Under the pieces are notes generated by a model, which had not been told where the DNA came from, did not search any database, and worked only from the letters and a program-made list of their open reading frames with translations. A program made the translations under genes and the position numbers. A DNA stretch of 64,000 nucleotides from Cyanobacteriota bacterium (GTDB taxonomy: Bacteria > Cyanobacteriota > Vampirovibrionia > Gastranaerophilales > UBA9971), in the NCBI GenBank assembly GCA_022703625.1, contig JAKLDH010000001.1, positions 12,157 to 76,156 on the forward strand, read 5' to 3'. Shown in pieces: positions 12,603-63,701 of the stretch (the first letter of the stretch is position 1; each line of letters starts with the position of its first letter).

Positions 12603-12663
12603 CTGAGCATAGCGAAGGGTCAAAGTATTTTATGATTAATCAGATTCTTCGCTTTTAGCTCAG
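12603..12663. repeat. family-D-like hairpin in the acpP-fabF spacer
   Basis: Arms CTGAGCATAGCGAAG (12603-12617) and CTTCGCTTTTAGCTCAG (12647-12663) pair as two 6-bp helices. The sequence word (CTGAGC.AGCGAAG) matches the D-type hairpins elsewhere in the window. Confidence 0.5.
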
Positions 12664-12727
12664 AAATATTTTGAATTATAATTATGTTTAAGTAGGAAAA
12701 GTTTAAAGTTATAAAAGGGAATTATTG

Positions 12728-13978
12728 ATGGTAAATAAATCCAGAAGAGTTGTTGTTACCGGGATGGGAGTCGTAACTCCGTTTGGAGTCGGTGTGGACT
12801 TGTTCTGGGAAAATCTTGTCAAGGGAAACAGCGGAGTTAAAACGATTACTCAAGTTGACTTGAGTAAGCATGACGTAAAAATTGGCGGTGAAGTAACAGA
12901 TTTTGAGCCTGGTAAATATCTTGATCAAAAAGAAGCGAAAAGAATGGATAGATTTACTCAGCTTGCAATGGTTGCCGCTCAGGAAGCTATGCGTGATTCA
13001 GGGCTTGATATGGAAAAAACTGATCCGACCAGAGTTGGAGTTATTGTAGGCAGCGCTGCCGGCGGTATGGCTACAATAGAAAAAAACCATGAAGCTATTA
13101 TGCAAAAAGGACCTTCAAAATGCAGTCCTTTTACAGTGCCGATGATGATCGTTGATATGGCTGCCGGAAGAATTTCCATAATGATTAACGCTAAAGGACC
13201 CAATAAAGCGATTGTAACGGCTTGCGCAACAGCTTCTCATTGTTTGGGAGACGCTTTTAGAACAATTTCATACGGAGATGCGGATGTCGTTTTTGCCGGA
13301 GGTTGTGAAGCTCCTCTTACTACTCTTGCAATGGCAGGTTTTACCAGCGCAAGAACTTTATCAAGACGAAATGATGAGCCTGAAAAAGCAAGCAGACCTT
13401 TTGATAAAGATAGAGATGGTTTTATTATGGCTGAAGGCGCAGGAATTTTTGTTCTGGAAGAACTAGAGCATGCTCTTGCAAGAGGAGCAAAAATTTATGG
13501 CGAATTTGTCGGCTATGGCGCAAATGCCGACGCAAATGATATAGTCGCTCCATGCGCTGACGGAGAAGGCGCTGCAAGAGCCATGAGGCTTGCTTTAAAT
13601 GATGCTGGACTTGAACCTCAAAAAGTTAAATATATAAATGCTCATGGAACAAGCACTTCGTTAGGAGATATTGCAGAAACAACAGCAATTAAAACTGTTT
13701 TTGGAGATTATGCTAAAAACGGACTTCTTGTAAGTTCAACAAAAAGCATGACCGGACATACATTAGGCGCTGCCGGAGCAATAGAAGCCATTGCTTGTTT
13801 AAAAGCGATGGAAACTAATATAGTTCCACCTACAATAAATCTGGATAATCCTGATGAACATTGCGATCTTGATTATGTGCCGCATACAGCAAGAAAAGTT
13901 GAAAATCTTGACGTTGTAATGTCAAATTCATTTGGATTTGGAGGACATAACGCTTCTTTAGTGTTTAAAAAATATTAA
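12728..13978 (+). CDS. fabF: 3-oxoacyl-ACP synthase II
   Basis: Active-site 'ACATASH', 'NAHGTST' and 'GHTLGAAG' motifs. Confidence 0.93.
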
Positions 13979-13997
13979 AATTTATAAATTCTTAATT

Positions 13998-14038
13998 AGC
14001 GGACGATTCGCCAAAGGCGAATCGTCCGCTAATTTTTT
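13998..14038 (+). terminator. rho-independent terminator after fabF
   Basis: Perfect 15-bp stem AGCGGACGATTCGCC/GGCGAATCGTCCGCT with an AAA loop, followed by AATTTTTT. Confidence 0.75.
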
Positions 14039-14092
14039 ACGCAATCCGCATCCACTTATAGTGATCTGTAAAAGGTTTTTGGAACTTAATAA

Positions 14093-14456
14093 TACCAAGT
14101 TGCAATCAATGTATACCAATCGAAATAAGTTTTCGTTAATTTATTAAAAAGCTGATACCTACAGCCCGCGCCGCCTTGCGGGCGGCGCGGACTGAGTAAG
14201 GATATAGCGAGTGTTTTGTAGCGCAAGCGGGAGTTTTAACTCATTCATGCTGCCGAAGGCAAAACACCCGTAAATTAAAGATTTACAAAAACCATCTTTT
14301 TTATTTAACGGTTTTTTAAATTAATTGGTATAGTATTAAATCTCCCTCCCCCTGCCCCCGCCCCAAGGGCGGGGAAGAAGAGTTGATAAGGGTTTTGCCG
14401 GTTACGCCGGCAAAACCCTTATCAAAAAATAATACTCTTTTGATTGCAACTTGGTA
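14093..14456 (+). mobile_element. family-A MITE (TIR TACCAAGTTGCAATCAA) carrying a nested family-B MITE
   Basis: Terminal inverted repeats at 14093-14109 and 14440-14456, flanked by TAA (14090-92) and TAA (14457-59). Collinear with the 53006 copy except for the B insertion. Confidence 0.8.
14114..14330 (+). mobile_element. family-B MITE (TIR TACCAAT...ATTGGTA), long subtype, nested in A
   Basis: Flanked by TA (14112-13) and TA (14331-32), while the paralogous empty site at 53025-26 has a single TA. Carries hairpins CAGCCCGCGCCGCC/GGCGGCGCGG and GTGTTTTG.../CAAAACAC, the latter with a ~35-nt loop insertion. Confidence 0.85.
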
Positions 14457-14460: not shown

Positions 14461-14511
14461 GATACAGCGGCTGGCTTCGCCAGCCGCTGCGACAAATATA
14501 AAATTATTTAT
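14461..14511 (-). repeat. family-F fragment (GGCTGGCTTCGCCAGCC hairpin plus AAATATAAAATTATTTAT tail)
   Basis: Matches the reversed F core seen at 60550-60604. Its tail overlaps the sepF stop codon (14508-14510). Confidence 0.6.
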
Positions 14512-14975
14512 CTGGCTTGATTCCACAAAGCTTCTTTAAGAACTTTTGCTTTTTCTGTTTCAGCTGAAATAGAAACATTTCTTGGGGTAAAAATAAATAC
14601 ACCCTCGCCGATTCTTTGCTGATGTCCGTCAACAGCATGAGTTGCGCCTGATATAAAATCCACAACCCTTTGAGATTGTTCTGCGTCAAGCAAATGTAAA
14701 TTTAAAATAATGGATTTTCTATCTCTAAGATTGTTTACAATATCAAGAGATTCTTCAAAAGTTTTTGGCTCTGTAACCATAACTTCAAACTGGTAACTGC
14801 TTTGATGAGCAACAACTTTTAAATTGGATTTACGTTTTTTGGGAGCTTCCTGAAGCTCTTCTTCTTCCTCAAACTGTTCTGCTCCGCCAAAGATTCCATC
14901 GTAATCAAAATCATTTTCGCCGATTTCCGGTTCAATTCCAACCCATTGTTTTAATTTGTTAACTATACCTGACAA
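14508..14975 (-). CDS. sepF: cell division protein SepF
   Basis: C-terminal DUF552 pattern 'SIILNLHLLDAEQSQRVVDFISGATHAVDGHQQRIGEGVFIFTP'. Adjacent to yggS as in ylmE-sepF clusters. Confidence 0.88.
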   Translation of the reverse strand: MSGIVNKLKQWVGIEPEIGENDFDYDGIFGGAEQFEEEEELQEAPKKRKSNLKVVAHQSSYQFEVMVTEPKTFEESLDIVNNLRDRKSIILNLHLLDAEQSQRVVDFISGATHAVDGHQQRIGEGVFIFTPRNVSISAETEKAKVLKEALWNQAR

Positions 14976-15927: not shown

Positions 15928-16062
15928 TATATGAATTTAAACAAGGCTTAACAAAGCTTAACATATATATTACAAGCGTGAAAATTTAATTTTACCAGGG
16001 TTAATTTTCAGATACGCCTTATTGTACGCAAGGAAGTAGTAATAGATAAGGAGAATCTTATT

Positions 16063-16914
16063 ATGAGTATTATTATCAACACAAACGTAAGCTCAATTTT
16101 AGTTCAAAGAAGTTTATCAACATCAACCCACAACATTCAGTCATCATTGGAAAAACTTTCAACAGGTTATAGAATCAACAAAGCCGCTGATGATGCGGCA
16201 GGTTTAAGCATATCCGAAAGCTTGAAAGCGCAGGGGCGTGGCGCTCAAGTAGCTTCAAACAACGCTCAAACAGGTATTAACCTTTTGCAAACAGCAGAAG
16301 GCGACCTTGCGATCATTCAGGAAAACTTGCAAAGAATCAGAGATCTTGCTATTCAGGCGGCAAACGGAACAAACGGTTCTGCTGAAAGAACAGCAATCCA
16401 GGCTGAAGTCCAACAGCGTGTTACAGAAATCGACAGACTGGCAGAGTCATCCGCATTTAACGGAATAAAACTTTTAGACGGATCAACAACTTCTGATCTT
16501 AAAATTCAAATCGGCGCAAACAGTAATCCGTCATTAAACTCAATCAGCCTTACAGATGGAGAAAATCCGCTGGAAAGCGCAACAGCTTCTTCTCTTGGAA
16601 TGACAACAGCTTTAGCTACAGCGTTTGGAACTACAGGCGCCGCGGCGAGTTTCATTTCTCAGATTGATGATGCTATTTCAAACGTGTCTTCAAGAAGATC
16701 AACAATAGGTTCTATCCAAAATAGATTAGAATCCGCAATTCAGAGTTTAAATATTCAGTATGAAAACATGTCAGCGTCTGAATCCAGAATCAGGGACGTA
16801 GATGTTGCTGACGAAGCCGCAAACCTCACCAAAAATCAAATATTGCAACAGGCTTCCGCTTCTCTGTTAGCTCAGGCTAACCAGGCGCCGTCGATTGCTC
16901 TAAGTTTAATATAA
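16063..16914 (+). CDS. flagellin (short, 283 aa)
   Basis: Flagellin N-domain 'MSIIINTNVSS...YRINKAADDAAGLSISE' and C-domain 'ILQQASASLLAQANQAPSIALSLI'. The central region is only about 60 aa. Confidence 0.95.
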   Translation: MSIIINTNVSSILVQRSLSTSTHNIQSSLEKLSTGYRINKAADDAAGLSISESLKAQGRGAQVASNNAQTGINLLQTAEGDLAIIQENLQRIRDLAIQAANGTNGSAERTAIQAEVQQRVTEIDRLAESSAFNGIKLLDGSTTSDLKIQIGANSNPSLNSISLTDGENPLESATASSLGMTTALATAFGTTGAAASFISQIDDAISNVSSRRSTIGSIQNRLESAIQSLNIQYENMSASESRIRDVDVADEAANLTKNQILQQASASLLAQANQAPSIALSLI

Positions 16915-16933
16915 AAAATCAATCACCCTGGTT

Positions 16934-17018: not shown

Positions 17019-17041
17019 AAAAAGATAAGGAGAATCTTATT

Positions 17042-17893
17042 ATGAGTATCATTATTAACACGAACGTAAGCTCAATTTTAGTTCAGAGAAGTTTATCGAC
17101 TTCAACACACAACATTCAGTCATCATTGGAAAAACTTTCAACCGGTTATCGAATCAACAAAGCGGCTGATGACGCGGCAGGTTTAAGTATTTCCGAAAGC
17201 TTGAAAGCTCAGGCTCGTGGCTCTCAGGTAGCGGCAGCAAACGCTCAAACAGGCATTAACCTTTTGCAAACAGCAGAAGGCGACCTTGCGATCATTCAGG
17301 AAAACTTGCAAAGAATCAGAGATCTTGCTATTCAAGCGGCAAACGGAACAAACGGTTCTGCTGAAAGAACGGCAATTCAATCTGAAGTTCAACAGCGCGT
17401 TACTGAAATTGACAGGCTGGCAGATTCATCCGCATTTAACGGGATAAAACTGTTAGACGGTTCAGCAACTTCTGATCTTAAAATTCAGATCGGCGCAAAC
17501 AGTAATCCGTCATTGAACTCAATCAGCATTACTTCCGGAGAAAACCCTCTGGAAAGCGCAAGCGCATCTTCTCTTGGAATGACTACAGCTTTGTCTACAG
17601 CGTTTGGAACTGCAGGATCAGCGGCGAGTTTCATTACTCAAATTGATGATGCGATTTCTAACGTATCTTCAAGAAGATCAACAATAGGTTCTATTCAAAA
17701 CAGATTAGAATCCGCTATTCAGAGTTTAAATATTCAGTATGAAAACATGTCAGCGTCTGAATCCAGAATCAGGGACGTTGATGTTGCTGACGAAGCCGCA
17801 AAACTCACCAAAAATCAAATATTGCAACAGGCTTCCGCCTCTCTGTTAGCTCAGGCTAACCAGGCGCCGTCAATTGCCCTAAGTTTGATATAA
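17042..17893 (+). CDS. flagellin (short, 283 aa), tandem paralog
   Basis: Same length as flagellin 1, with about 20 substitutions clustered in the central region. The leader AGATAAGGAGAATCTTATT preceding the ATG is identical. Confidence 0.95.
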   Translation: MSIIINTNVSSILVQRSLSTSTHNIQSSLEKLSTGYRINKAADDAAGLSISESLKAQARGSQVAAANAQTGINLLQTAEGDLAIIQENLQRIRDLAIQAANGTNGSAERTAIQSEVQQRVTEIDRLADSSAFNGIKLLDGSATSDLKIQIGANSNPSLNSISITSGENPLESASASSLGMTTALSTAFGTAGSAASFITQIDDAISNVSSRRSTIGSIQNRLESAIQSLNIQYENMSASESRIRDVDVADEAAKLTKNQILQQASASLLAQANQAPSIALSLI

Positions 17894-17908
17894 AAATCAA
17901 GGCTTTTT

Positions 17909-17936: not shown

Positions 17937-18160
17937 AGCTTAAGAGCTTAAAACAAACAGACAAGATTATTAAGAAGAAAAAATCAAGTAAGGTTTAATA
18001 AAACCTCTTTGTTTAAATTTTGCTCCAATCACCATCAGGAATGCGTTAAAGGGAAAATGAACCACAACTTACGTATCGTCGTTAATAATACTTAAATTCC
18101 AATTTTTGCTTAAACCGCGATACAAATGTTTAAACAAAATTGGAATTTCTTTATTAATAT

Positions 18161-18247
18161 AATAAAAATCATTAATATGTCCGCATTTAACGAGTTTCCC
18201 TTTATCCCGCAAGCAATTCATGTAATGAGTATTGTCGTTTAATATAC
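18161..18247 (+). repeat. conserved 85-nt 5'-element, copy 1 (upstream of the STAS-like ORF)
   Basis: AATAAAAATCATTAATATGTCCGCATTTAACGAGTTTCCCTTTATCCCGCAAGCAATTCATGTAATGAGTATTGTCGTTTAATATA aligns over its full length with 42691-42778 and with the reverse complement of 55571-55658. Confidence 0.7.
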
Positions 18248-19746: not shown

Positions 19747-21069
19747 ATGAAAAAAGTAGCGTTACAAACCCTGGGATGCAGAGCCAATCAGCTTGAATCC
19801 TCAATAATAATCGATAAATTCTTGAAATTAGGCTGGGAAGTCGTTAATTTTAACAGTTTTGCTGATATTTACATAATAAATACATGCACTGTAACCGGAA
19901 AAAGCGACAATTCTTCTTTGTCTTTTGTTAGAAAAGCTAAAAAGATTAATCCTGCGGCAAAAATTATAATTGCAGGTTGCTATCCTCAGGTCGCCGCCGA
20001 AGAAATAGCCAAAATTCAGGACATTGATCTTGTTATAGGCAACGCAGAAAAACTTAACCTGCCTGAATTATTAGAAAAACATGATGTTTTTAATGAGAAC
20101 TCAGGCAAAATTTATGTTTCAGACATAATGAAAGAAGAAAAATTCAGGGACGAAACGGTTTTATCTGCTTCAGGAAGAGTAAGAGCAAATATTAAAATAC
20201 AAGATGGCTGCAATTACAGATGTTCATACTGCATAATCCCCTATGCAAGAGGAAAAAGCAGAAGCAAAGAGCTTTACGGAACAATTGAACAGATTAAACA
20301 AATTACAGACAAAGGTTTTAAAGAAATTGTCCTGTCCGGAATTCATCTGGGACAATGGGGACTTGATTTAAATCCGCAAAAGACGTTGTTAACGCTTTTA
20401 GAAGAAATTGAAAAAATATCGGAACTTAAAAGATTCAGGTTAAGTTCTTTAGACCCCATGGAACTTAATGAAGAAATGATAACCTTTCTTGCAAATTCCG
20501 AAAAGTTTTGCAGGCATTTGCATATTTCTCTTCAAAGCGGCAATAATGAAGTTTTAAAAAGGATGAACAGGCGTTATACCGTTGAATATTACTCTGAATT
20601 AATAAATTCCCTTGTTGAAAAAATCCCTTTTATAAATATAGGCAGTGATATAATAGTAGGATTTCCCGGAGAAACAGACGCTAATTTTGAAAACACTTAT
20701 GAAAACCTGAAAAAACTTTCTATTGGTTATATACATATATTTCCGCATTCCAAAAGAAAAAACACTCCTGCCGCCATAATGCGGGATCAGGTAGACGAAA
20801 AAGTTAAAAAATATAGAGCCGCAAGACTAAAAGCGCTTGCAGCGGAGAAAAGTCTTGAATTCAGAGAAAAACTTGTGGGTAATGAGTTTGAAATTATTGT
20901 GGAAAATACTCGTGATAAAAATACCGGACTTTTAAAAGGAATGACCGATAATTTTATTTCCACGCTGATTGCAGGAGATAATGAGTTAAAAAATCAGCTT
21001 GTAAGAGTAAAAATAACCTCTACTGATGAAAAAACTACTTTTGGTCAAAGCAATTCAAGCCTATATTAA
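19747..21069 (+). CDS. mtaB: MiaB-like radical-SAM methylthiotransferase (MtaB type)
   Basis: N-terminal UPF0004 'TLGCRANQLES...NTCTVT', radical-SAM 'CNYRCSYCIIP' and a C-terminal TRAM-like region. Confidence 0.85.
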   Translation: MKKVALQTLGCRANQLESSIIIDKFLKLGWEVVNFNSFADIYIINTCTVTGKSDNSSLSFVRKAKKINPAAKIIIAGCYPQVAAEEIAKIQDIDLVIGNAEKLNLPELLEKHDVFNENSGKIYVSDIMKEEKFRDETVLSASGRVRANIKIQDGCNYRCSYCIIPYARGKSRSKELYGTIEQIKQITDKGFKEIVLSGIHLGQWGLDLNPQKTLLTLLEEIEKISELKRFRLSSLDPMELNEEMITFLANSEKFCRHLHISLQSGNNEVLKRMNRRYTVEYYSELINSLVEKIPFINIGSDIIVGFPGETDANFENTYENLKKLSIGYIHIFPHSKRKNTPAAIMRDQVDEKVKKYRAARLKALAAEKSLEFREKLVGNEFEIIVENTRDKNTGLLKGMTDNFISTLIAGDNELKNQLVRVKITSTDEKTTFGQSNSSLY

Positions 21070-21153: not shown

Positions 21154-21155
21154 TA

Positions 21156-44757: not shown

Positions 44758-44769
44758 ACTTTATTAATT

Positions 44770-52445: not shown

Positions 52446-52448
52446 AAA

Positions 52449-52979: not shown

Positions 52980-53005
52980 TAAATTATTTATACCAATCAA
53001 AATAA

Positions 53006-53148: not shown

Positions 53149-53152
53149 GTAG

Positions 53153-55396: not shown

Positions 55397-55470
55397 TGCG
55401 CCTGACGCGATTCGAACGCGTGACCTACGGCTTCGGAGGCCGTTACTCTATCCAACTGAGCTACAGACGC
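55397..55470 (-). tRNA. tRNA-Arg (anticodon CCG)
   Basis: Hand-folded 74-nt cloverleaf: GCGTCTG acceptor, anticodon loop CTCCGAA, T-loop TTCGAAT. ORF 55336..55578 over it is spurious. Confidence 0.9.
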
Positions 55471-55570
55471 ATGGTATGTTATGGCTCGCTTTCATTGATT
55501 TGGTTTTTTGCTTCCCCTTTCCAGGCTGCTCCCCGGCGGGAACAGAAAAATTTGAAATTTATTTTGGGAG

Positions 55571-55658
55571 TATATTAAACGACAAAACTGATTAACATGA
55601 ATTGCTTGCGGGATATGGGGGAAACTCTTTAAACGCAAACAGATTAATGATTTTTATT
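55571..55658 (-). repeat. conserved 85-nt 5'-element, copy 3 (points toward tRNA-Arg)
   Basis: The reverse complement AATAAAAATCATTAATCTGTTTGCGTTTAAAGAGTTTCCCCCATATCCCGCAAGCAATTCATGTTAATCAGTTTTGTCGTTTAATATA aligns with copies 1 and 2. Confidence 0.7.
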
Positions 55659-55722
55659 ATAATATAAATATATTAATGTTTTTTATTATATACTATAAAA
55701 AATAAATCTGGAGGTTGGTCTT

Positions 55723-56766
55723 TTGGAAGTGATTTTTTCTGGAATCGAAATTTTAGTTGTGTTGATACTCATAGTGCTTGCCTGTATTGTGTTTACCAAC
55801 GCTGTTGAACATCTTGGAGAAGAACTTAATTTGTCGGAAGGAGCGGTTGGAAGTGTCCTTGCCGCAGTAGGAACAGCTTTGCCGGAAACTTTAGTTCCTC
55901 TTGTCGCTATTATTGGAGCTTATGTTGGCGGTTCAAGCATTTCAACAGGAGAAGAAATCGGTATAGGAGCAATTCTTGGAGCGCCTTTTCTGCTTGGCAC
56001 TTTAGCGTTTTTTGTTACAGGAGCCGCTGTTATATTATTTGCCCGCGCAGGAAGACGAAATAAAGACATGCCGGTTAATACCGTCATTATGTTCAGGGAT
56101 TTGCATTACTTTGCAATTGCTTATTCCGTTTCTGTTTTTAGCTCTTTTATACCTTATAAACCTTTAAAATATTTAATGGCGGGACTATTGCTGGTCATTT
56201 ATCTTATTTACGTTATCAAAACTATACGAACAGAATGTAAATCGGAAGAATGCTCATTAGAAGACCTTGAACCGTTATATTTGATTAATTTAGCGAGATT
56301 TCCCTCCAGATTTAAGCTTCAAGCCATCATTTTTCAATTTTTACTTGCCTTGGGAGGCATTATTGTTCTTGCGCATATTTTTGTTGAACACATAAAATTT
56401 ATTTCCGAAGTTTTCCATATTAACCCGCTTATTTTAAGCCTTATTATTGCTCCGATTGCAACAGAACTTCCCGAAAAATTTAATAGCGTAATCTGGATAA
56501 AAAACAAAAAAGATACTCTTGCAATGGGAAATATAACCGGCGCAATGGTTTTTCAAAGCTGTATCCCAACAGCAGTAGGTTTATGCCTTACCCCATGGGT
56601 TCTTGATTCAACGGCATGGGTAAATATAATAATCGTATATTTGTCTGTAGCCGTAGTTTATATTAATATTGTCTTGAATAAAGGAATTTTAAAACCTTAT
56701 GCGTTAATCAGCGGAGGCTTTTTCTATTTAATATTTCTTGGTTATATAGGATATAAAATTTTTTAA
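55723..56766 (+). CDS. sodium/calcium exchanger (CaCA, YrbG-like) membrane protein
   Basis: About 10 TM helices. Alpha-repeat-like 'GAVGSVLAAVGTALPE' and 'GNITGAMVFQ'. TTG start after GGAGG. Confidence 0.8.
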   Translation: MEVIFSGIEILVVLILIVLACIVFTNAVEHLGEELNLSEGAVGSVLAAVGTALPETLVPLVAIIGAYVGGSSISTGEEIGIGAILGAPFLLGTLAFFVTGAAVILFARAGRRNKDMPVNTVIMFRDLHYFAIAYSVSVFSSFIPYKPLKYLMAGLLLVIYLIYVIKTIRTECKSEECSLEDLEPLYLINLARFPSRFKLQAIIFQFLLALGGIIVLAHIFVEHIKFISEVFHINPLILSLIIAPIATELPEKFNSVIWIKNKKDTLAMGNITGAMVFQSCIPTAVGLCLTPWVLDSTAWVNIIIVYLSVAVVYINIVLNKGILKPYALISGGFFYLIFLGYIGYKIF

Positions 56767-56808
56767 AATGACTTTTATTATAAAATATACTAATCTGGAA
56801 AAATTATA

Positions 56809-58326
56809 ATGAGTAATAAACAATTTAAAAAAATCGTTGATTATTTTGTAAACAGAGGAATGCTCTATTACAATTCAGAAAATTTTGACCTTGCGCTTGA
56901 ATGTTTTAAAAAAGTGTCGCAAATTGATTCTGAATACGCATGGGCATATTTTTACGCTGGTCAGGCTTTGTATAAACTAAAACGCTTTGAAGAGTCTGTA
57001 GAAAACTTTTTAAAGGCAATAGAGCTTGATTCTTCAGAATCAGATTTCTATAAATGGCTTGCAAATACTTATAAACGAAACGAAGATTACGAAAAAGCCA
57101 TTTTTAACTATAAAAAAGCTTTCCAGCTAAACCCTAAAGACTATTGGACAAGTTATGAAATCGCAGACATAAATTATATTCTGGAAAAATACGATCAGGC
57201 ATTAATTAATCTTAGAAAAGCCATTATGATTAAACCTGATTTCCCGCTGGCATATAACAAAATTGGAGCTATTGAATATTCAAGAAGCAATTTTGAAGCG
57301 GCAATTAAGAATTTTGAAAGAGCTGTCAGCTTAAATAATCAAAACCCTGATTTTTATTATAAGCTTGGAATAAGTCATTTTCAGCTTGGGCAATTAGATG
57401 AAGCGGAGAAAAATTTTAAAAACGCGTTAATTTTTGACAGTAAAAACATTTCTTCTTACGCTTATCTTGCAAATATTGCATCTCGCAAAAATGAATTTGA
57501 CGCCGCAATAAAATATTTTAAACAAGCTATTTTGATTTATCCCGATTCCGCTTCTCTTAATTCAAGTCTTGGCAAAGTTTATTTGCAGAAAAATGAACTT
57601 CCTAAAGCGATTAAGTGTTTTGAAAAAGCGTTTAATCTTAATGATAAAGATATAAACCTTTTTTTAATTTTAGTGAATTTGTACAGCAGAACCCGTAAAT
57701 ATGAATCCGCAATCTCCCTTTCCTTTAGATTTCTGGAAAAAGACTCTAATGATTCCAATAAATTGCCTATCTATAAAAATCTTGGCTTAATTTATTTTGA
57801 AATAGCCAAATTTGAAGAAGCGGTTGAATATTTTAACAAAGCTCTGGAGTTGCAGCAGAACGATAACGGCATTATATTAACGCTGGGATTTTTATATTTA
57901 GAAAAAGAAGAGCCTGAAAAAGCGCTTGAATGTTTTAACAAGCTGGCTGAAAACAGTCCTGACGATCCGAATCTGCATATTGGTTTTGCTTGCTACTTTA
58001 CAGATACGGGAAATTTTAAAGAAGCCGTTAAATCTCTTAGAAATGCCAGAAAACTTAATTCTGAAAAAAGCGCGCTTTATTTTTATACAGGATATTATTT
58101 TCTAAAAAGAAAAAAAACTGATATTTCAGTTAAAATCCTGACAAAATCCGCATTAATAAACCCCTACAGCCATTATACATATTATTATCTGGGGCAGGCT
58201 TTTTTAAAGCTCGGCAGAGAAAGAGAAGCGTTAAAAAGTTTTGAGAAAGCTGTTTCGCTTAATAAATACAGGAAAAAATACAAATTAAGCCTTGAAAGTT
58301 TAGGAAAACCCTCAGAAATTATTTAA
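56809..58326 (+). CDS. TPR-repeat protein
   Basis: About 12 tandem TPR-like units (A..Y/F..G....A...F..A). Confidence 0.8.
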   Translation: MSNKQFKKIVDYFVNRGMLYYNSENFDLALECFKKVSQIDSEYAWAYFYAGQALYKLKRFEESVENFLKAIELDSSESDFYKWLANTYKRNEDYEKAIFNYKKAFQLNPKDYWTSYEIADINYILEKYDQALINLRKAIMIKPDFPLAYNKIGAIEYSRSNFEAAIKNFERAVSLNNQNPDFYYKLGISHFQLGQLDEAEKNFKNALIFDSKNISSYAYLANIASRKNEFDAAIKYFKQAILIYPDSASLNSSLGKVYLQKNELPKAIKCFEKAFNLNDKDINLFLILVNLYSRTRKYESAISLSFRFLEKDSNDSNKLPIYKNLGLIYFEIAKFEEAVEYFNKALELQQNDNGIILTLGFLYLEKEEPEKALECFNKLAENSPDDPNLHIGFACYFTDTGNFKEAVKSLRNARKLNSEKSALYFYTGYYFLKRKKTDISVKILTKSALINPYSHYTYYYLGQAFLKLGREREALKSFEKAVSLNKYRKKYKLSLESLGKPSEII

Positions 58327-58330
58327 CTTA

Positions 58331-58528
58331 TACCAAGTTGCAATCAAAGCCTAATCGTCATTGCGAGGCATAAAATCAGGAATATAAGTTATTAATGTAT
58401 TTTCGAAGCAATCTTCCTGCTTGGAATGATTGAAAGAAGATTGCTTCGCAAGTTAATTGCCAAAGTATACCCCTAACTTTAAGGCTCGCAATGACGGGAA
58501 AAAGTTATATATTGATTGCAACTTAGTA
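58331..58528 (+). mobile_element. family-A shell carrying family-D cargo
   Basis: TIRs TACCAAGTTGCAATCAA / TTGATTGCAACTTAGTA flanked by TTA (58328-30) and TTA (58529-31). Interior is CGTCATTGCGAGG ... GCTCGCAATGACG arms. Starts 4 nt after the TPR stop. Confidence 0.75.
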
Positions 58529-58654
58529 TTAGTATATTCCTCTGAATATATGATTTTTAAACCAACAAAGTTTTTATAAAAGCGATTAATACTAAAATAA
58601 TAATTATTTGTCTAAAATTTTTTAAAAAATCAAAACAAAAAGGGGGATATTAAA

Positions 58655-59275
58655 TTGACAAAAGTTATTGCGGCGCAAAGACTGGCGGAAATAGAAGCAG
58701 TTGCAAGCAAAGTGCAGGGCTGGCTGGCAAATCAGGCGGGACGAACTCTTTATCAAATGATAATTCAATATTCGCCTAATAATACGATTGTCGAACTGGG
58801 GGCATGGAAAGGGCGCTCAACAGTCTGGATGGCTAATGGGGTAAAAGATAGAGGCGATAACGGCTTGTTATACTCTGTTGATACCTGGCAAGGAACTCAA
58901 AATGAAGCTGTACATAAAGAAATGTTGAAAAATTATTCTGACGATCAGTTATTTGAAGAATTTTTGGCAAATATAAATAATGCGGGAATATCTGAATATG
59001 TAAAACCAATCAGGTCAACAACGATTGAAGCCGCCAAGAATTGGTCTTTGGACAAGCCTATTGGTTTGTTGTTAATAGATGCGGATCATGAATATAAAGC
59101 GGCAAGAAAAGATTTTGAATACTGGAGCCCTATGGTTGCAGACGAGGGTTTTATCGTTTTTGACGATGTTCCGGCATGGCCGGGACCGACAAAACTTATA
59201 ACGCAGTTGCCCCATTGGTATGAACAGGTTGCTGTAAGTCAGGGACAATGGATCGTTCAAAAAAGAGCTTTCTAA
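58655..59275 (+). CDS. class I SAM-dependent methyltransferase (Methyltransf_24/CmcI-like)
   Basis: 'IVELGAWKGRSTVWMA' SAM-binding loop and 'LLLIDADHEY'. The first 100 nt are 50% G+C (hand count), versus 26% for the first 100 nt of the neighbouring TPR gene. Confidence 0.7.
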   Translation: MTKVIAAQRLAEIEAVASKVQGWLANQAGRTLYQMIIQYSPNNTIVELGAWKGRSTVWMANGVKDRGDNGLLYSVDTWQGTQNEAVHKEMLKNYSDDQLFEEFLANINNAGISEYVKPIRSTTIEAAKNWSLDKPIGLLLIDADHEYKAARKDFEYWSPMVADEGFIVFDDVPAWPGPTKLITQLPHWYEQVAVSQGQWIVQKRAF

Positions 59276-59291
59276 TCGCTCAAGCGTAAGC

Positions 59292-59363
59292 GGAAGAGTA
59301 TTTAATGCAGGTTTTTGCCGGCGCAGCCGGCAAAAACCTTATCAAAAAATAGCGCTCTTTGCC
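59292..59363 (+). repeat. family-A right-half fragment
   Basis: GGAAGAGTATTTAATGCAGGTTTTTGCCGGCGCAGCCGGCAAAAACCTTATCAAAAAATAGCGCTCTTTGCC parallels 53070-53135. Confidence 0.55.
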
Positions 59364-59365
59364 TA

Positions 59366-59465
59366 TACTAATCAATTTTAAAAACTGTTAAATAAAAAGA
59401 TGATTTTTGTAAAGCCTTAATTAGCAGCTTTTTAACCAATTAACGAAAATTTATTTGGATTGGTA
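59366..59465 (-). mobile_element. family-B MITE, internally deleted (no GC hairpins)
   Basis: TACTAAT...ATTGGTA flanked by TA (59364-65) and TA (59466-67). 100 bp; both ends match B, and the middle is missing. Confidence 0.7.
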
Positions 59466-59472
59466 TAAATTT

Positions 59473-60342
59473 TTAAGGAATCATCTGATCAACAGTCATA
59501 ATAAGTATTCCGGTTGCTCCGAGCTGTTTTAGTTTATTAATATTTTCATAAAGATTTTTTTTATTAACAACAACATGTATGGCGACCTCGTCGTCGTTAT
59601 CCAGCAACCTTACAACGGTAGGGGATTTTAAGCCTGGAATTATTTGTTTAACTTCTCCAAGAGCTTGTCTTGGAATATTTGCCATGAGATATTTCTTTTC
59701 ATCAGCGTCAAGAGCTGATTTAATCGCTCTTACAAAAGCTTCCAGCTTTTCGGAATGCTCTTGTTTAAGTCCCGGTCTTGCGATTATAACAGCGTTTGAT
59801 GTCATAATTTCAGCGATAATTTTTAAATTATTGGTTTTTAATGTTGATCCGCTTGAAGTTATGTCTACAATAACATCCGCAAGCCCTAATTTTGGGGTAA
59901 TTTCAGTTGCTCCGCGCACTTCTGTCACATGAATTTTTTTATTTAATTTTTCAAAATATTTCTTTGTTATGTTAGGAAAGGAGGTAGCGATTTTAATATT
60001 GTCAGAAAGCTCTTCAGCGCTATTTACAGGGGATTCTTCTTTTGCGGCAACCACCATTTTGCAGGAGCCGAAATTAAGTTCCATAATTTCTTCAACGTCC
60101 ACGCAGCTTTCTGCGACAACGTCCTGCCCGGTAACTCCCAGATCAGCAACTCCGCTATTTACAAAGTTAGGAATATCCTGAGTTCTTACAAAAACCATTG
60201 TATAATTTCCGTCATGAGTTGTGGCATATAGTTTTCTGTCGCTTTTTGTTATTGACAAACCTGCTCTGTTAAAAAGATCAAACATGTCGTCAAAAAGTCT
60301 GCCTTTATTTGGCGCAGCAATTTTTAAACCGCATTTATTCAT
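59473..60342 (-). CDS. hisG: ATP phosphoribosyltransferase (long form)
   Basis: 'LKIAAPNKGRL' N-terminus, 'DITSSGSTLKTN' and a C-terminal regulatory domain. No other his genes are nearby. Confidence 0.9.
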   Translation of the reverse strand: MNKCGLKIAAPNKGRLFDDMFDLFNRAGLSITKSDRKLYATTHDGNYTMVFVRTQDIPNFVNSGVADLGVTGQDVVAESCVDVEEIMELNFGSCKMVVAAKEESPVNSAEELSDNIKIATSFPNITKKYFEKLNKKIHVTEVRGATEITPKLGLADVIVDITSSGSTLKTNNLKIIAEIMTSNAVIIARPGLKQEHSEKLEAFVRAIKSALDADEKKYLMANIPRQALGEVKQIIPGLKSPTVVRLLDNDDEVAIHVVVNKKNLYENINKLKQLGATGILIMTVDQMIP

Positions 60343-60411
60343 CGTTTATTATCCTTTTATGTTTTGTTTCAATAAATAATTATACATTTAAAATTAAGAT
60401 TATTAAACTTA

Positions 60412-60497
60412 TACCAATTTTAATAAGTTTTCGTTAAGCGGTTAAAAAGCTGCTACTTACAGCACATGCCGCCCTGAGCGCAACCCGTTACCCTGTT
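60412..60497 (+). repeat. family-B element, truncated and degenerate
   Basis: TA-TACCAATTTTAATAAGTTTTCGTTAAGCGGTTAAAAAGCTGCTACTTACAGC..., then loss of similarity. Confidence 0.55.
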
Positions 60498-60604
60498 AAA
60501 ACTTTTTTATGAGGCTCGCAGGCAAAGCCTGCGAGCCTCATGGTTTTTCGAAGGCGTAGCGGCTGGCGAAGCCAGCCGCTACGCCAAATATAAAATTATT
60601 TATT
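60498..60604 (-). repeat. family-F core, reversed and truncated, host of the next B insertion
   Basis: TTTTTTATGAGGCTCGCAGGCAAAGCCTGCGAGCCTCATGG...GGCGTAGCGGCTGGCGAAGCCAGCCGCTACGCCAAATATAAAATTATTTAT. Its matching F terminus TTAGCAACTCAGGTT resumes at 60826-60840, after B8. Confidence 0.6.
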
Positions 60605-60606
60605 TA

Positions 60607-60822
60607 TACCAATCTAAATAAATTTTCGTTAATTGATTAAAAAGCTGATATTTACAGCCCGCGCCGCGGGCAGGGCGGCGCGGGCAGGGTAAGGGTATAG
60701 CGGATGTTTCGTTGCGCAAGCGGGAGTTTTAACTCATTCATGCTGCGAAGCCGAAACATCCGCTAATTAAGGCTTTACAAAAATCATATTTTTCATTTGC
60801 CGATTTCTTTTAATGATTGGTA
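60607..60822 (+). mobile_element. family-B MITE, long subtype, nested near the end of the F element
   Basis: TACCAAT...ATTGGTA flanked by TA (60605-06) and TA (60823-24). Has the same ~35-nt loop insertion (GCGCAAGCGGGAGTTTTAACTCATTCATGCTG) as B1. Confidence 0.8.
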
Positions 60823-60965
60823 TATTTAGCAACTCAGGTTAATATCATAAAATAATGCACTACTTACATGATAATTAAAGTTAATTCATTTGATATAATA
60901 ATTTGAAAAGTTTATAAAAAAGTAAGTATTAACTTTTGTAACGCGCTTATAATGAGGAACCGTTC

Positions 60966-62840
60966 ATGTTTGAAAAAAATATACAGGCGATAAAAATAAA
61001 AAATCCTGAGTTTGCGGAAAAGATTAAAGGCATTGATTTTGACTTGATTAAAGATCAAATTACTGTTGCAGAAGCTGAAAGTCAGGATTTAATCATAGGC
61101 TATAAAGGAATAGCGCTTCATAGCATGGTTGATCCGATAAGAGAAGCCCGAGCTATATGGAATAAAACGGTTAAGTCAGACTTAAAAAAGACTGATACAC
61201 AGATTGTATTTGGATTAGGACTGGGGTATTTGTTTAAAAGAGCCTATTTAAACGCCAATTCAAGGATTTTCCTTATTGAACCCGTTTTGGAAATATTAAG
61301 GTTTGTTTTGGAACATGTCGATTTATCAACAGAATTAGCGGATGAAAGAGTTTATATTACTGATAATATTAAGGATGCAACAAACAGATTGCAGAAAATG
61401 TATTTACAAGGGGATAAGGTGGAATTCATTTTGCTTCCAGCGTATACTTCTTTAGCTAAAGACACCCTTGAAGAGCTTTCAGTCAAAGTGATAAACGTTA
61501 TTGAAGGCAAATCTTCTGACGTTAACACTATTTTCAAGCTTGCGCCTCGCTGGATGAGAAATTTTATAAAGAACCTCCCGTTTTTCGCTGATTTCAGACC
61601 GCTAGGCTTTTTTAAGGACAAATTTGTCGACAAAACAGCCCTAATCATTGCGGCAGGACCAAGTTTGGTCGAAAATATAGATAAAATCAAGCAAAACAAG
61701 GATAAATTCATAACCATTTGCGCGGCAAAAGCCCTTAAAACATTGGCGGAAAATGACATTATTCCTGACTTCGTAACTTTTGCGGACGCCGGAGGCTTTC
61801 AGGGGCAAGTTAAAGGCGTTGAAAGCATACTTGAAAAAACCAATATAATATTGACCTCAAAATCTGATCATACTGCAATCAAGATGAAAACGAAGTCTAA
61901 AATCCTGTATTTGCCTGAAACAGAACCGTTTTCAAATTTATTTCAGAAATATTCCAAGACAGACCCTGGAATTTATAAATCTGCAAGTAGTATATCAATC
62001 ATAAATTACTTTATTGCCAAAACCTTAGGCTTTAATAATATAGCATTTGTGGGACTTGACCTGTCTTTTCCTGACAATAAGCTTTATTCAACCGGAGAAA
62101 CGCTTGAAACAACCGAAGACGGCTTTATAAAAATGGAAGGAATGAAATCTTTCAATAGAACAGTAAAATACACAAAAGACAAAAACGGCATGGAGATTGC
62201 CACTAGGGATGATTACCTCTTGTTTATAAGACAATTTGAAGAAATTTTTGAAGAAGAAACGAGTTTATCAAAAGTTGTTAATACTTCTGTCAAAGGCGCT
62301 TATATCAATGGGATGGCTTATTTCGGTTTTGATGAATTCTTGCGGGAACTGCCTTCTCAGGCGATCAATGTTGACGAAATGCTTTCTGATAGTGATAATA
62401 GCGTTGCAAACGATTGGAATAACTGCTTGAAAGCAGTCTTTAATGAACTTTATAGTCAAAAAGAAGCTATAAATGAAGTAAAAGAAGAATCAGAGCTTCT
62501 TATCAACAGTATTCATAAGTTTATCGACATAATGGAAAAAGAAACCGGCATTTTTCTTAGAGGCGAAAAACTAAGTAAATTACAGCAAAACGTCATAAAA
62601 ATACGCAAAAAAATAATGGAAAGCTTGACTTTGCAAATTTCTCTACAAGGCATATTGTGGGAGTATTCCAAAAACTATAAAACAGATAATTTGGCGAATA
62701 AAGACGTTATGCTGAACAATTTAAAAGAAGATGAAAAACTGTTTATAAGCGCAGCCAAACATTCCGCCAAAATTTTAACTAATTTGGAAGAATCCTTTAA
62801 AATAATGGAAGAAAAAACAGCAACTTCGCTTATAAATTAA
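60966..62840 (+). CDS. maf: motility accessory factor (Maf/DUF115-type flagellin glycosylation protein)
   Basis: 624 aa. Central DUF115-like 'TALIIAAGPSL...ICAAKALKTL...' region. Size and layout resemble Campylobacter/Helicobacter Maf proteins. Confidence 0.7.
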   Translation: MFEKNIQAIKIKNPEFAEKIKGIDFDLIKDQITVAEAESQDLIIGYKGIALHSMVDPIREARAIWNKTVKSDLKKTDTQIVFGLGLGYLFKRAYLNANSRIFLIEPVLEILRFVLEHVDLSTELADERVYITDNIKDATNRLQKMYLQGDKVEFILLPAYTSLAKDTLEELSVKVINVIEGKSSDVNTIFKLAPRWMRNFIKNLPFFADFRPLGFFKDKFVDKTALIIAAGPSLVENIDKIKQNKDKFITICAAKALKTLAENDIIPDFVTFADAGGFQGQVKGVESILEKTNIILTSKSDHTAIKMKTKSKILYLPETEPFSNLFQKYSKTDPGIYKSASSISIINYFIAKTLGFNNIAFVGLDLSFPDNKLYSTGETLETTEDGFIKMEGMKSFNRTVKYTKDKNGMEIATRDDYLLFIRQFEEIFEEETSLSKVVNTSVKGAYINGMAYFGFDEFLRELPSQAINVDEMLSDSDNSVANDWNNCLKAVFNELYSQKEAINEVKEESELLINSIHKFIDIMEKETGIFLRGEKLSKLQQNVIKIRKKIMESLTLQISLQGILWEYSKNYKTDNLANKDVMLNNLKEDEKLFISAAKHSAKILTNLEESFKIMEEKTATSLIN

Positions 62841-62937
62841 TTTCAAGAGTTCTCTAAACAATTTTTCAGGGTCTTTTGTTTTTATATCTATATAAAGGGT
62901 TTTGCGGTTTTTGGAAATAGGGGAAAAACAAACTTAC

Positions 62938-63492
62938 ATGCAGCAAAAAACGACTATTTGGAATATAATTTTGGATATAATCATAAAAATTTTCGCTTAT
63001 ATTTATGATTTTCTGTTCAATTGGGAAGATGAACCCTATCAGGAAGAGGATTTTCTGGAAAAGGAGAAAGCAAAACTTTCTGCTGTAAAACAAGATACCC
63101 CTTTTTCCGGGAATACATCCGAAAATAATTTTACTGTAAGCATTAATAATCCTAATAGAAACGATTTTGAAACTTTAAAATCCGCTTTTGGCATACAAAC
63201 CGCCAATTATATTTATAAATTAAGAGAAGAAGTTGATTATCTTGTAAAAGAACATAATCTTACGCAGGAAAATTCAATAATGATAGTCATTCCTCCTGAA
63301 AAAATGAAGACAAGCCTTTTAGGTCCTGAATTTTTCGAGTCTACTTTTGAAAGAATCTATTCTCAATATGATAAAGATGTAATTTTAAAGCCGGGTAAAT
63401 TTAAAATAATACATAATAAAGCAGGCGCATTTTATGCGGAAATAAGGGTGGATGCTTATACAGTTACTCAGGAGCTTTTGGTTTCTATATAA
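62938..63492 (+). CDS. hypothetical membrane-anchored protein (184 aa)
   Basis: N-terminal hydrophobic helix 'IWNIILDIIIKIFAYIY'. Start is uncertain (ORF open from 62902). Confidence 0.5.
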   Translation: MQQKTTIWNIILDIIIKIFAYIYDFLFNWEDEPYQEEDFLEKEKAKLSAVKQDTPFSGNTSENNFTVSINNPNRNDFETLKSAFGIQTANYIYKLREEVDYLVKEHNLTQENSIMIVIPPEKMKTSLLGPEFFESTFERIYSQYDKDVILKPGKFKIIHNKAGAFYAEIRVDAYTVTQELLVSI

Positions 63493-63701
63493 TTTGAGTT
63501 GCTAAAAGTTTTTTCAATCGTCATTCTGAGGGTTTTAACCCGAAGAATCTTGTTGTATACAAGCCATGAGATGTTTCGCTTCGCTCAACATGACGCATTC
63601 ATGCCATGAGATCCTTTGCTTCGCTCAACATGACGCATTCATGCCATGAGATGTTTCGCTTCGCTCAGGATGACAGTTTTGGCTATTTAGCGACTCAAGT
63701 T
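63491..63701 (+). mobile_element. family-F shell carrying family-D hairpins
   Basis: TIRs AATTTGAGTTGCTAA (63491-63505) and TTAGCGACTCAAGTT (63687-63701). The right TIR overlaps the HD-GYP stop codon (63700-02). Confidence 0.65.
63563..63675 (+). repeat. 40-bp tandem repeat (2.8 copies) of a D-type hairpin
   Basis: GCCATGAGATGTTTCGCTTCGCTCAACATGACGCATTCAT at 63563 and 63603 (3 mismatches), and a partial copy at 63643. Confidence 0.8.

Follow-up and report, generated by a model that had tools for sequence, protein, structure and literature searches.

The window, meaning the whole stretch of 64,000 nucleotides analysed here, belongs, according to the annotations of the window proteins, to a MAG of Candidatus Gastranaerophilales, a non-photosynthetic cyanobacterial lineage, and no transposase genes were found within it. 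Its G+C content is 34.9%, not the ~30% given for the genome in an earlier note made from the sequence alone. Self-BLAST detected repeats only from 14.1 kb, matching the onset at ~14 kb described there, and all of the listed repeat words were found where that note had placed them. Our recount of 37 element intervals (5,076 bp, 7.9% of the window) agrees near-exactly with its ~40 copies, ~5 kb and 8%. Its six families proved too few: at least eight crowd the intergenic DNA, families G and H and an A-like variant shell having been overlooked. The elements had also been called GC-rich, which is true of the hairpin cores only, the elements overall having 39% G+C. The features are as follows, MITE marking the element type that we consider probable below.

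12603-12670, no strand: degenerate D-type hairpin without outer GTCAT arms, like subtype GTCATCCTGAGCGAAGCGAAGGATC...CTCAGAATGAC (sequence reading)
14093-14456, +: A MITE, TAA duplication, split by a nested B (BLAST; A positions 1-21 at 14093-14113 and 20-143 at 14331-14456, the 2-nt overlap being the TA duplication made by B)
14114-14330, +: B MITE in its long form (34 nt inserted into the hairpin-2 loop), inside A, TA duplication
14466-14516, -: F fragment, one hairpin
18158-18244, -: G MITE, absent from the earlier list
21068-21154, +: B copy, hairpin block internally deleted (alignment)
21156-21483, +: B MITE split by a nested A (B 1-131 at 21156-21286, resuming at 21434)
21287-21433, -: A MITE, standard interior, reversed, TAA duplication (82% identity to 53006 over the full 143 nt)
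22828-22971, -: E MITE, 90% identical to the 42458 copy, flanks apparently compatible with a TAAT duplication
38777-38925, no strand: D hairpin (38777-38890) and right half of an A-like shell (AATTTAAGCTATTTTACATGATGAATTGCAAGTT), left half lost, read against the intact element in L149 (3388-3490)
38957-39200, +: C short form, the GGGGGTTCGGGGGCTTGCCCC head at 38988 being internal
40535-40670, no strand: free-standing D hairpin, homologous, immediate flanks included, to D in the F shell of L196 and L189
42460-42612, +: E MITE
42688-42776, -: G MITE, TA-flanked, 97% identical to the G reference
43437-43606, +: F MITE, GATT duplication
43610-43900, +: C long form, 63-nt internal insert
44227-44331, -: E copy, diverged (73% identity)
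44771-44957, +: F copy, then a G-type right end (ATATTAATGACTTTTATTA)
46449-46691, +: C, true left terminus at 46449, right part truncated by the adjoining E
46692-46783, -: E copy, truncated
47798-47980, -: B MITE, standard 183-bp form, TA duplication
47991-48174, -: C long form, truncated
51450-51569, -: B copy truncated at the 3' end of gene 51567-52445
52430-52510, -: E copy, internal deletion
52991-53005, +: 15-bp B left end cut by an A insertion (sequence reading)
53006-53148, +: A MITE, intact, the A reference
53151-53193, no strand: lone right arm of a D hairpin
55573-55661, +: G MITE
58331-58528, +: A termini, TTA duplication, around a D hairpin (58357-58495), without the standard A interior
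59293-59359, +: A fragment, second hairpin only
59366-59465, -: B copy without hairpin block
60412-60481, +: B 5' fragment
60503-60841, -: F copy split by a nested B at 60607-60822 with TA on both sides, the F terminus resuming at 60825-60841
63491-63701, +: F-like termini around a D hairpin with three tandem right arms

The first bases of the F copy at 43437-43606 provide the stop codon of the ORF at 42764-43438.

We further compared the window with ~0.93 Mb of digester-metagenome DNA (34% G+C) retrieved via the B terminus. Its G+C, the repeat families in common and one common source sample indicate that this DNA apparently comes from the window organism or a close relative, and none of its loci overlaps the window. 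The further copies sought beyond the window were present here, each family occurring 17-117 times, far above chance, and the families covering 7.4% of the sample. The earlier note had allowed for assembly joins, and chimeric joining of metagenome contigs at repeats would fit the short-read contigs of this population, which often end at these elements; L109 (ERZ795055 NODE_2255), for example, ends at window position 58587, just past the element at 58331-58528. However, three independent assemblies agree at 99.9-100% identity over window positions 53,809-61,326, a region carrying six elements. The elements are therefore not assembly joins, and the precise duplications, the conserved gene neighbours and the recurrence of the families across four metagenome assemblies likewise stand against an artefact, which we regard as effectively refuted.

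The suggestion that these are mobile elements bounded by terminal inverted repeats was borne out by family-specific termini and, in most families, target duplications. Among de-duplicated, full-length copies, we found a 3-bp T-N-A duplication in family A (21/26 copies), a TA duplication in B (62/67) and a 4-bp AT-rich duplication in F (28/32) and E (9/11). Families G and H duplicate TA, and the right terminus of G repeats the left one in inverted orientation only imperfectly. The head taken as the terminus of C turned out to be internal, its true termini being a 23-bp inverted repeat (GACCGATAATATTTTTTATGTAA) ~50 bp further out, and no consistent target duplication was found for this family. 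A-type elements of other phyla also carry the T-N-A duplication (44 of 59). We consider it probable, at roughly 85%, that the elements are MITEs, that is, non-coding elements with terminal inverted repeats that are moved by a transposase encoded elsewhere; such short elements would keep the terminal inverted repeats only and be cut and pasted by the enzyme in trans. The Correia elements of Neisseria are listed as MITEs, as is RUP of Streptococcus pneumoniae (PMC3184786). The mean identity within families (85-94%), together with the lack of any filled/empty-site polymorphism among 48 overlapping locus pairs, gives no sign of current activity.

For family A, a full-length partner was found elsewhere as four insertions, 1124-1137 bp long, with A termini, TCA or TTA duplications and HTH_33 and DDE_3 ORFs; it belongs to the IS630 family, its orfA encoding a helix-turn-helix and its orfB a DDE_3 domain. 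The left terminus of G matches an IS630-type element from the metagenome sample. The earlier proposal to look for autonomous elements with matching ends thus succeeded for A, and no such partner was found for B, E or F, nor for C and H, these five families presumably being mobilised by transposases absent from our data. A search of the 0.93-Mb sample gave no A-type transposase, and A may therefore be inactive in this organism or depend on a diverged enzyme. Bacterial MITEs derived from IS630/Tc1-mariner elements, Correia and RUP among them, resemble the present ones in their length of 90-220 bp, non-coding nature, terminal inverted repeats, strongly folding interiors, intergenic location and transposase in trans, and also in the TA duplication of B, G and H and the HTH plus DDE_3 partner of A and G. 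They differ in that at least eight families co-reside and nest mutually here, that the A termini are near-unchanged around unrelated interiors in many phyla, and that A and its full-length partner duplicate T-N-A, whereas the canonical IS630 duplication is TA. Nezha of Anabaena/Nostoc (Zhou et al. 2008), a 130-170 bp element described as having termini that match ISNpu3 and a suspected horizontal transfer (PMC3184786, PMC6042816), is likewise a MITE of a cyanobacterial lineage with termini matching an IS, but its 10-bp direct repeat, as far as the account in PMC6042816 goes, rules out that family A, with a 3-bp T-N-A, is Nezha.

The combination of the same termini with different hairpins had been read as a shell-plus-cassette system distinct from classical MITEs. 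A dedicated system of this kind would actively exchange hairpin modules between standard shells by specific recombination, the combinations being its functional point. Yet the family-standard interior was present in 83 of the 98 terminus pairs examined. Among the other pairs, three F copies are shortened, some hold a nested insertion that has kept its target duplication, one pair of G-like ends encloses an ORF together with F (window 44426-44957), and four copies contain D (between A termini at 58331, and between F termini in L133, in L196 and at 63491). The A shell at 14093, one of the examples listed, is an A with B inserted at TA, and the different cargo reported at 21287 reflects an orientation error, this being a standard A reversed inside B, with TAA on both sides and the empty site AATTAAGG in other B copies. 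Most mixed cases are plain nesting of this sort, in which target duplications are kept and empty sites can be reconstructed. The sites used by F, B and A are AT-rich motifs within the ends of other elements, and F sits at the same AATT of the G terminus in both orientations as well as at a second site, which demonstrates independent, target-driven insertions.

What survives of the module swapping is confined to the D-bearing sub-families: the interiors at 58331 (A termini) and 63491 (F-like termini) are indeed of D type, and the A and F termini each occur with a standard or a D interior. Exchange between shells would also accommodate D hairpins of the same subtype in the unrelated H and F shells of the sample (~90% arm identity by eye), and the interiors of A and E, which share a weak similarity (65% over 106 nt) and their hairpin order even though the two families differ in termini and duplication length. 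It would fit, too, the recurrence of A termini with other, unrelated hairpin interiors in many phyla, and the existence of 46-bp elements made of two termini alone. Given that no recombinase, conserved junction motif or empty/filled shell pair was found, we consider a dedicated exchange system improbable. For MITEs, the combinatorial look would have three causes, namely nested insertion up to three levels deep, deletion derivatives and fragments, and genuine sub-families with the same termini and a different interior, mostly the D hairpin. Elements would land in one another because their targets (TA, TNA and AATT) are built into AT-rich ends and linkers, and different interiors between the same termini are expected because only the termini would be recognised. 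MITE-in-MITE insertion is familiar from the plant Tourist and Stowaway elements, the targets TA and TNA/TAA being abundant in AT-rich MITE sequence. These plant elements share target-driven nesting and terminus-defined families with unrelated interiors, but the host here is a compact bacterial genome, and the G+C-rich hairpins of the interiors are preserved through compensatory change. The modules of BOX and BIMEs are not known to have terminal inverted repeats and fixed target duplications at their borders. Both BOX of Streptococcus pneumoniae (PMC3049150) and the enterobacterial BIMEs are modular, mosaic short intergenic repeat units, like those in the window; unlike theirs, the modularity here comes mostly from the nesting of separate transposable elements.

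D, previously counted as a terminus-defined family, is instead a long hairpin unit of 75-160 nt (GTCATTGCGAG…CTCGCAATGAC) with two conserved stem blocks, found 54 times compared with 9-11 in shuffled sequence. It behaves as an independent unit, lying inside at least four types of shell (F, A, A-like and H) and, as had been noted for the hairpins, outside them, taking the form of solitary units, single arms and tandemly duplicated arms; the subtype GTCATCCTGAGCGAAGCGAAGGATC...CTCAGAATGAC was also seen among the sample hairpins. As no shell with and without D at otherwise identical sequence was found, we infer rather than observe that D is a discrete insert. Free-standing D was found in Nostocales and Desulfobacterota, and probably occurs in Alphaproteobacteria, and D is present in >120 viral contigs. 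The suggestion that hairpin words are annotated as spurious ORFs in other phyla holds for the D word, whose translation appears in hypothetical proteins of Alphaproteobacteria and, with a weaker match, of a Bacteroidota MAG. Overall, the window combines an established element type at unusual density with an unexplained pan-bacterial hairpin.

REP, REPIN or BIME-type hairpins are moved via single-stranded DNA, and the enzyme responsible is RAYT, a domesticated tyrosine (Y1/HUH) transposase, rather than a DDE enzyme. REPIN families are generally described as being specific to one lineage and its RAYT, whereas D extends across phyla and viral contigs and sits within DDE-type MITE shells. Nevertheless, D and the GTAGGGGC-type hairpins resemble REP doublets (PMC3116915) in having two inverted arms with solitary and tandem arms nearby, and D also in its very high copy number and in the absence of a target duplication or conserved flanks around it; some A-type interiors of other phyla also begin with GTAG, like REPs. 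The head of D is GTCATT, not the GTAG of RAYT substrates, no RAYT was found here, and a weak test returned no Y1-type gene in ~1 Mb. The terminal inverted repeats and fixed-length duplications of A, B, E, F, G and H are, moreover, not made by Y1 transposition, and such an origin for the repeats is rather unlikely. D itself may be a REPIN-like mobile hairpin, or may have been captured repeatedly between termini.

The hairpins are maintained, with 98.3% of stem cells paired in 53 B copies compared with 34-46% in slid controls, and compensatory double changes in 16 of 40 pairs of the B stems compared with 2-5 in controls. These compensatory changes would also be expected of host RNA or DNA signals (terminators, mRNA stabilisers or protein-binding sites), repeated for their usefulness and not through mobility, a view with which two further observations agree: by our tally, convergent gene pairs flank 7 of the 19 intergenic regions with elements, and the D stem blocks are conserved in sequence itself, beyond pairing, which suggests protein recognition. 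However, terminator-like sites were not enriched (16 vs 12.7 ± 3.1), the element hairpins have no proper T-tails, the hairpins, D included, gave no Rfam match, the elements occur in either orientation and in divergent promoter regions, and target duplications and nesting demonstrate insertion events, which together make a host-signal origin doubtful. We infer that the hairpins are kept for transposition or host tolerance, not as terminators.

Comparison of the window with itself by BLAST revealed repeated DNA only from 14.1 kb onward, and these repeats are short intergenic stretches once one paralogous gene pair and one repeated domain are set aside. The resulting element map comprises 37 intervals covering 5,076 bp (7.9% of the window), which matches the hand tally of an earlier note on this DNA, whose listed words were all found at their positions. 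That note had put the G+C content of the genome at about 30%, whereas the window has 34.9% and the elements as a whole 39%, with only the hairpin cores being G+C-rich. The window proteins are annotated by NCBI as Candidatus Gastranaerophilales, a non-photosynthetic sister lineage of Cyanobacteria, and no transposase genes are encoded in the window. We drew on a metagenome scan with the terminus of family B (families are named by their termini), which retrieved 111 stretches (930,691 bp, 34% G+C; hereafter referred to as the sample) from a few digester metagenomes. None of the 111 stretches overlaps the window, and one of the source metagenomes (ERZ795055) also has contigs with window genes; from the G+C content, the repeat families in common and the common source metagenome, we infer that the sample derives from this organism or a close relative. 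Each family has 17–117 full-length matches in the sample, and together the families cover 7.4% of its DNA, so the absence of further copies, contemplated in the earlier note, does not apply. The same note had considered that the repeats might be assembly joins, which they are not, since the region 53,809–61,326 is 99.9–100% identical across three independent assemblies. Mean within-family identity ranges from 94% (F) down to 85% (B), and no filled/empty-site polymorphism between assemblies was detected among 48 overlapping locus pairs; these data thus give no evidence of recent activity. These repeats are a real and unusually dense MITE population with three less ordinary features, namely an IS630 lineage with a 3-bp T-N-A footprint, termini common to many phyla, and a long hairpin unit, D. 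Accounting for about 8% of the DNA, the elements interrupt short-read assemblies and give rise to spurious ORFs, and family models would clean up the annotation of Melainabacteria and many MAGs.

Family A is 143–147 bp long, with 26 distinct full-length copies in ~1 Mb, carries TACCAAGTTGCAATCAA at each terminus, and is flanked by a 3-bp T-N-A footprint in 21 of these 26 copies (de-duplicated by flanks). Nezha is a known Nostocales MITE with ISNpu3-type termini. Its direct repeat is reported to be 10 bp (PMC6042816) as against the 3-bp target duplication of A, and we rejected the identity of the two on duplication length, the feature compared. A scan of one genome per species (596 Gb) with TACCAAGTTGCAATCAA gave at least 107 loci, which among the matches listed were assigned to Nostocales, Desulfobacterota, Synergistota, Firmicutes, Nitrospirota, Acidobacteriota, Spirochaetota and others. 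The chance expectation for a 17-mer in 596 Gb is ~70. Among the matches listed, T-N-A precedes almost every terminus, many have an inverted partner 46–171 bp distant, and 44 of 59 A-type terminus pairs in other phyla have identical 3-bp T-N-A flanks, which together show that these matches are not due to chance. In a Hydrogenedentes MAG, a pair of A termini 1137 bp apart encloses two ORFs with helix-turn-helix and DDE_3 domains (PF13358, E = 5e-22; also PF13592, PF13551 and PF13384), the ORFs overlapping as in frameshifted IS630 members. Relatives of the Hydrogenedentes protein identified three more full-length insertions (1124–1126 bp) that share these termini and have TTA duplications. The autonomous element matching the A ends that the earlier note had proposed to seek is therefore represented by four full-length copies (1124–1137 bp, flanked by TCA or TTA), all of them elsewhere, and no full-length partner was found in the window or the ~0.93-Mb sample. 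The canonical IS630 target duplication is TA; it was seen at none of the four full-length copies, all of which have 3-bp TCA/TTA flanks, so that IS630 membership of the partner rests on transposase homology. Given full-length elements with A termini, a T-N-A-type duplication and DDE_3, family A is a MITE of an IS630-family lineage with a 3-bp footprint, unlike the canonical TA.

A literature search for IS630 members with a T-N-A footprint returned nothing relevant, and one for the A and D words returned unrelated primer matches only. In plasmids, the A terminus gave chance-level matches only, and a plasmid protein search found a Polaromonas relative (46% identical) with a related end, TGA followed by TACCACTTTGCATTCAA. 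The interiors of A-type elements are completely different between genomes, consisting of D-type hairpins, double hairpins starting GTAGGGGC, repeated 14-bp hairpin units, or termini only. As GTAGGGGC by itself shows no clear enrichment in the cross-phylum loci (36 matches vs ~22 expected), we relied only on complete hairpins inside elements. In the MAG 'bacterium Dive96_bin10.231' (L001, L008, L010, L014, L024, L035 and L076), A-type elements occur at 124, 138 and 152 bp, with one or two additional 14-bp hairpin units (CCGGGCTTTAGCCC) accounting for the differences, a series that looks like an internal hairpin minisatellite. A Candidatus Adiutrix MAG (L047, L049, L066, L070 and L074) has 46-bp elements made of two A termini and a 12-nt spacer, several of which are found at one end of larger A-type elements. 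One IS630-type terminus with unrelated interiors, in many phyla and with a 3-bp rather than a 2-bp footprint, constitutes a natural series that bears on what the transposase needs beyond the termini and on how such elements cross phyla.

In the sample itself we found an IS630-type element (locus L161, 557–1705; orfA and orfB; ends TACTAAGCGACATA and TACTAAACGACATA; TA-flanked), whose terminus matches ~43 distinct sites in ~1 Mb at which TA is directly followed by TACTAAACGACAAAACTAATTAAC. These sites are the left end of family G, a ~90-bp element that begins TACTAAACGACAAA with TA before it and whose right end is an imperfect inverted copy only. Family G, with termini matching a full-length IS from the sample and a TA duplication, is accordingly a MITE, and is a seventh family missed among the six of the earlier note, with three copies in the window.

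Window copies of family G, whose left terminus matches the L161 element
18158–18244, G copy
42688–42776, G copy
55573–55661, G copy

A further family in the sample, H, spans 144–147 bp (TA, then CAGTGATTCATTAATT...CACTG, then TA), and an A-like variant shell (a shell being the terminal pair of an element) is also present. A CRISPR array with a 37-nt repeat (GTTTCAATCCTGATTTTGTTGGAATAGAGGTATAAAT) adjoins the right end of the L161 element (L161 1700–2100 and beyond).

Families B, E and F have the terminal inverted repeats and fixed-length duplications that define MITEs, and no full-length cognate autonomous IS for their termini was found in the 0.93-Mb sample.

Flanking duplications in the sample, copies de-duplicated by flanks
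B, identical flanks in 62 of 67 copies, TA
F, identical flanks in 28 of 32 copies, 4 bp, mostly AATT
E, identical flanks in 9 of 11 copies, 4 bp, AT-rich

For E, a 3-bp duplication suggested by two window copies was replaced by 4 bp in the larger sample. The word AACTTGAATTGCTAA, found fused to G ends, was considered as a false F terminus; its 4-bp duplications rule this out and mark it as the true F terminus, with F nested in G. Family C, for which a G-rich 'head' had been proposed as the boundary, is instead bounded by a 23-bp inverted repeat (GACCGATAATATTTTTTATGTAA); 14 copies of 265–365 bp show these termini clearly, with no consistent flanking duplication (ATA in 4 of the 14). C occurs in a long form (43610–43900 and 47991–48174), with an extra 63-nt internal insert containing two small hairpins, and in a short form without it (38957–39200 and 46449–46691). 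Two B copies (14114–14330 and 60607–60822) carry a 34-nt insert, TTGCGCAAGCGGGAGTTTTAACTCATTCATGCTG, exactly in the loop of the second hairpin, and 11 of 68 distinct full-length B copies, matched by length, have the 216 bp of this form. Hairpin-less B copies could be viewed as 'empty shells', but their breakpoints differ between copies, indicating that they are internal deletion derivatives. Across 53 distinct copies, the B stems are 98.3% paired, compared with 34–46% when partners are slid by 1–2 columns, and double compensatory changes occur in 16 of 40 pairs vs 2–5 in the slid controls; judged by this pairing, the B hairpins are maintained.

The earlier note had interpreted the repeats as a shell-plus-cassette system in which the same termini enclose exchangeable cargo. 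We surveyed the interior of every terminus pair in the window and the sample.

Interiors enclosed by terminus pairs, window and sample
A termini, 23 pairs: 21 standard interior; 1 with a nested B at window 14093, 1 with D inside at window 58331
F termini, 42 pairs: 36 standard interior; 3 shortened copies and 3 with D inside (AATT on either side in two of these)
G termini, 33 pairs: 26 standard interior; 4 with a nested F, 1 with a nested B, 1 with an F carrying D (nested three levels deep), 1 in the window with an ORF and an F between G-like ends

In the nested cases, the duplication of the inner element is kept and the empty site can be reconstructed. The A shell at 14093, one of the examples in the earlier note, contains a nested B with its TA duplication intact (AATG-TA-[B]-TA-GTATT vs AATGTAGTATT in an intact A copy). 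At 21287, A lies within B (GCTAAT-TAA-[A]-TAA-GGATTT vs AATTAAGG in other B copies), and the supposedly different cargo of this A copy is the standard A interior on the other strand, with 82% identity over the full length. F is found in the terminus of G at the same AATT in both orientations and at a second site, which points to independent insertions drawn to a target motif; the TAATTAA stretch of B is a target of both F and A. The combinatorial appearance thus comes mostly from nesting driven by target preference, and the part of the module-swapping proposal that stands is that A and F termini each enclose two unrelated interiors, the alternative one being the D hairpin. The A and E interiors show weak similarity (65% over 106 nt) although their termini differ. 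At 44426–44957 in the window, G-like left and right ends surround a 100-aa ORF (44455–44757) and an F element. We did not adopt a passenger-gene element here, as the ORF is single-copy and has no Pfam match; the stretch may represent one G that was split, a pair of G fragments, or a passenger gene. At another retrieved locus (L187, 7241–7488), an A-like shell enclosing D has inserted into the D hairpin of an element with an F shell, giving a multi-level nest with two D units.

D has the form GTCATTGCGAG-...GAAGCAATC...GATTGCTTC...-CTCGCAATGAC, and GTCAT...ATGAC hairpins with complementary arms number 54 in the window and sample, compared with 9–11 in shuffled sequence. It is located in F, A, A-like and H shells, alone, and as single or tandem arms.

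D arms in the window
53151–53193, solitary D arm
63520–63674, tandem D arms (an arrangement also present at several sample loci)

The D at 38777 retains only the right half of an A-like shell, and for the D at 40535 the homology to a D in an F shell elsewhere extends into the immediate flanks. The 40535 hairpin is adjoined at 40687–40708 by a small hairpin, GGGCGAACACTTAGGTTCGCCC, of the GGGCGAAC...GTTCGCCC type also seen inside Desulfobacterota A-type elements (L084 and L087). Free-standing D was found in one Nostocales genome and two Desulfobacterota MAGs. Moreover, a scan of viral contigs for GTCATTGCGAG-N40-70-CTCGCAATGAC returned at least 120 contigs, where the estimated chance number is well under one. 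Among the matches listed, there are 134–137 distinct viral copies of 75–90 nt whose flanks show no conservation apart from the C and G next to the hairpin; the second stem block (GAAGCAATC / GATTGCTTC) is present in 100–132 of 137 copies, the middle segment varies with pairing kept, and the mean folding energy is -44.8 kcal/mol vs -22.4 for shuffles. A synthetic protein query built from translations of D in its three reading frames retrieved hypothetical proteins, 45–127 aa in length, annotated in Sphingopyxis, Novosphingobium and two Bradyrhizobium species. These Alphaproteobacteria proteins are 74–87% identical over a hairpin-length stretch, with E-values that are weak because the match is short, and a Tannerellaceae MAG match is weaker; the matches lend support to the statement in the earlier note that some hairpin words resemble ones annotated as spurious small ORFs in unrelated phyla. 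A limited search of CC-licensed papers and preprints found no description of D, and 12 viral loci with canonical D had no Rfam match.

D resembles REPINs in having two inverted units that form a long hairpin, in occurring as singlets and in lacking a duplication, but its head is GTCATT rather than the conserved GTAG-type head of REP. A search for a Y1/HUH (RAYT) transposase gave no match in ~1 Mb, which is a weak test. No shell both with and without D was found in the window and sample; D may insert as a unit. We consider it possible, at roughly one chance in four, that D is a self-propagating pan-bacterial and viral hairpin that prefers the centres of MITEs with unrelated termini (a parasite of parasites) and is mobilised by an enzyme that has yet to be connected with it, while in parallel the A termini would represent an IS630 sub-lineage with a 3-bp T-N-A footprint and termini essentially identical across many phyla. 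Cyanobacteriota and Desulfobacterota genomes carry D with a conserved sequence, Alphaproteobacteria have it in the form of translated small ORFs, and >120 viral contigs contain it; finding the factor that recognises it could uncover a mobility or regulatory system of wide occurrence.

Terminator-like sites (a G+C-rich stem followed by a T-run) are not enriched (16 vs 12.7 ± 3.1 expected), and the element hairpins have poor tails, without T-tails. The gene at 12725–13978 is directly followed, at 13998–14040, by a canonical and unique terminator hairpin, GCGGACGATTCGCC...GGCGAATCGTCCGC with a T-run after it, which shows that the ordinary terminators of this genome are distinct from the repeat hairpins. 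With Rfam 15 at the gathering score, the only matches in the window were tRNAs, and at a permissive threshold nothing exceeded chance for any family, including C. One of these tRNAs, tRNA-Ala(TGC), adjoins tRNA-Ile(GAT) at 3604–3795, an arrangement as in an rRNA spacer, and no rRNA gene was detected in the window. Two adjacent paralogous genes of 283 aa each (16041–16922 and 17020–17900) constitute a direct repeat of 880 bp that has no relation to the short elements. Finally, a 170-bp repeat (53325–53496 and 63771–63941) falls inside two genes with HD-type domains and represents paralogous domains, not a mobile element.

Genes holding the 170-bp repeat
53246–55069, GGDEF and HD domains
63700–63984, HD_5 domain
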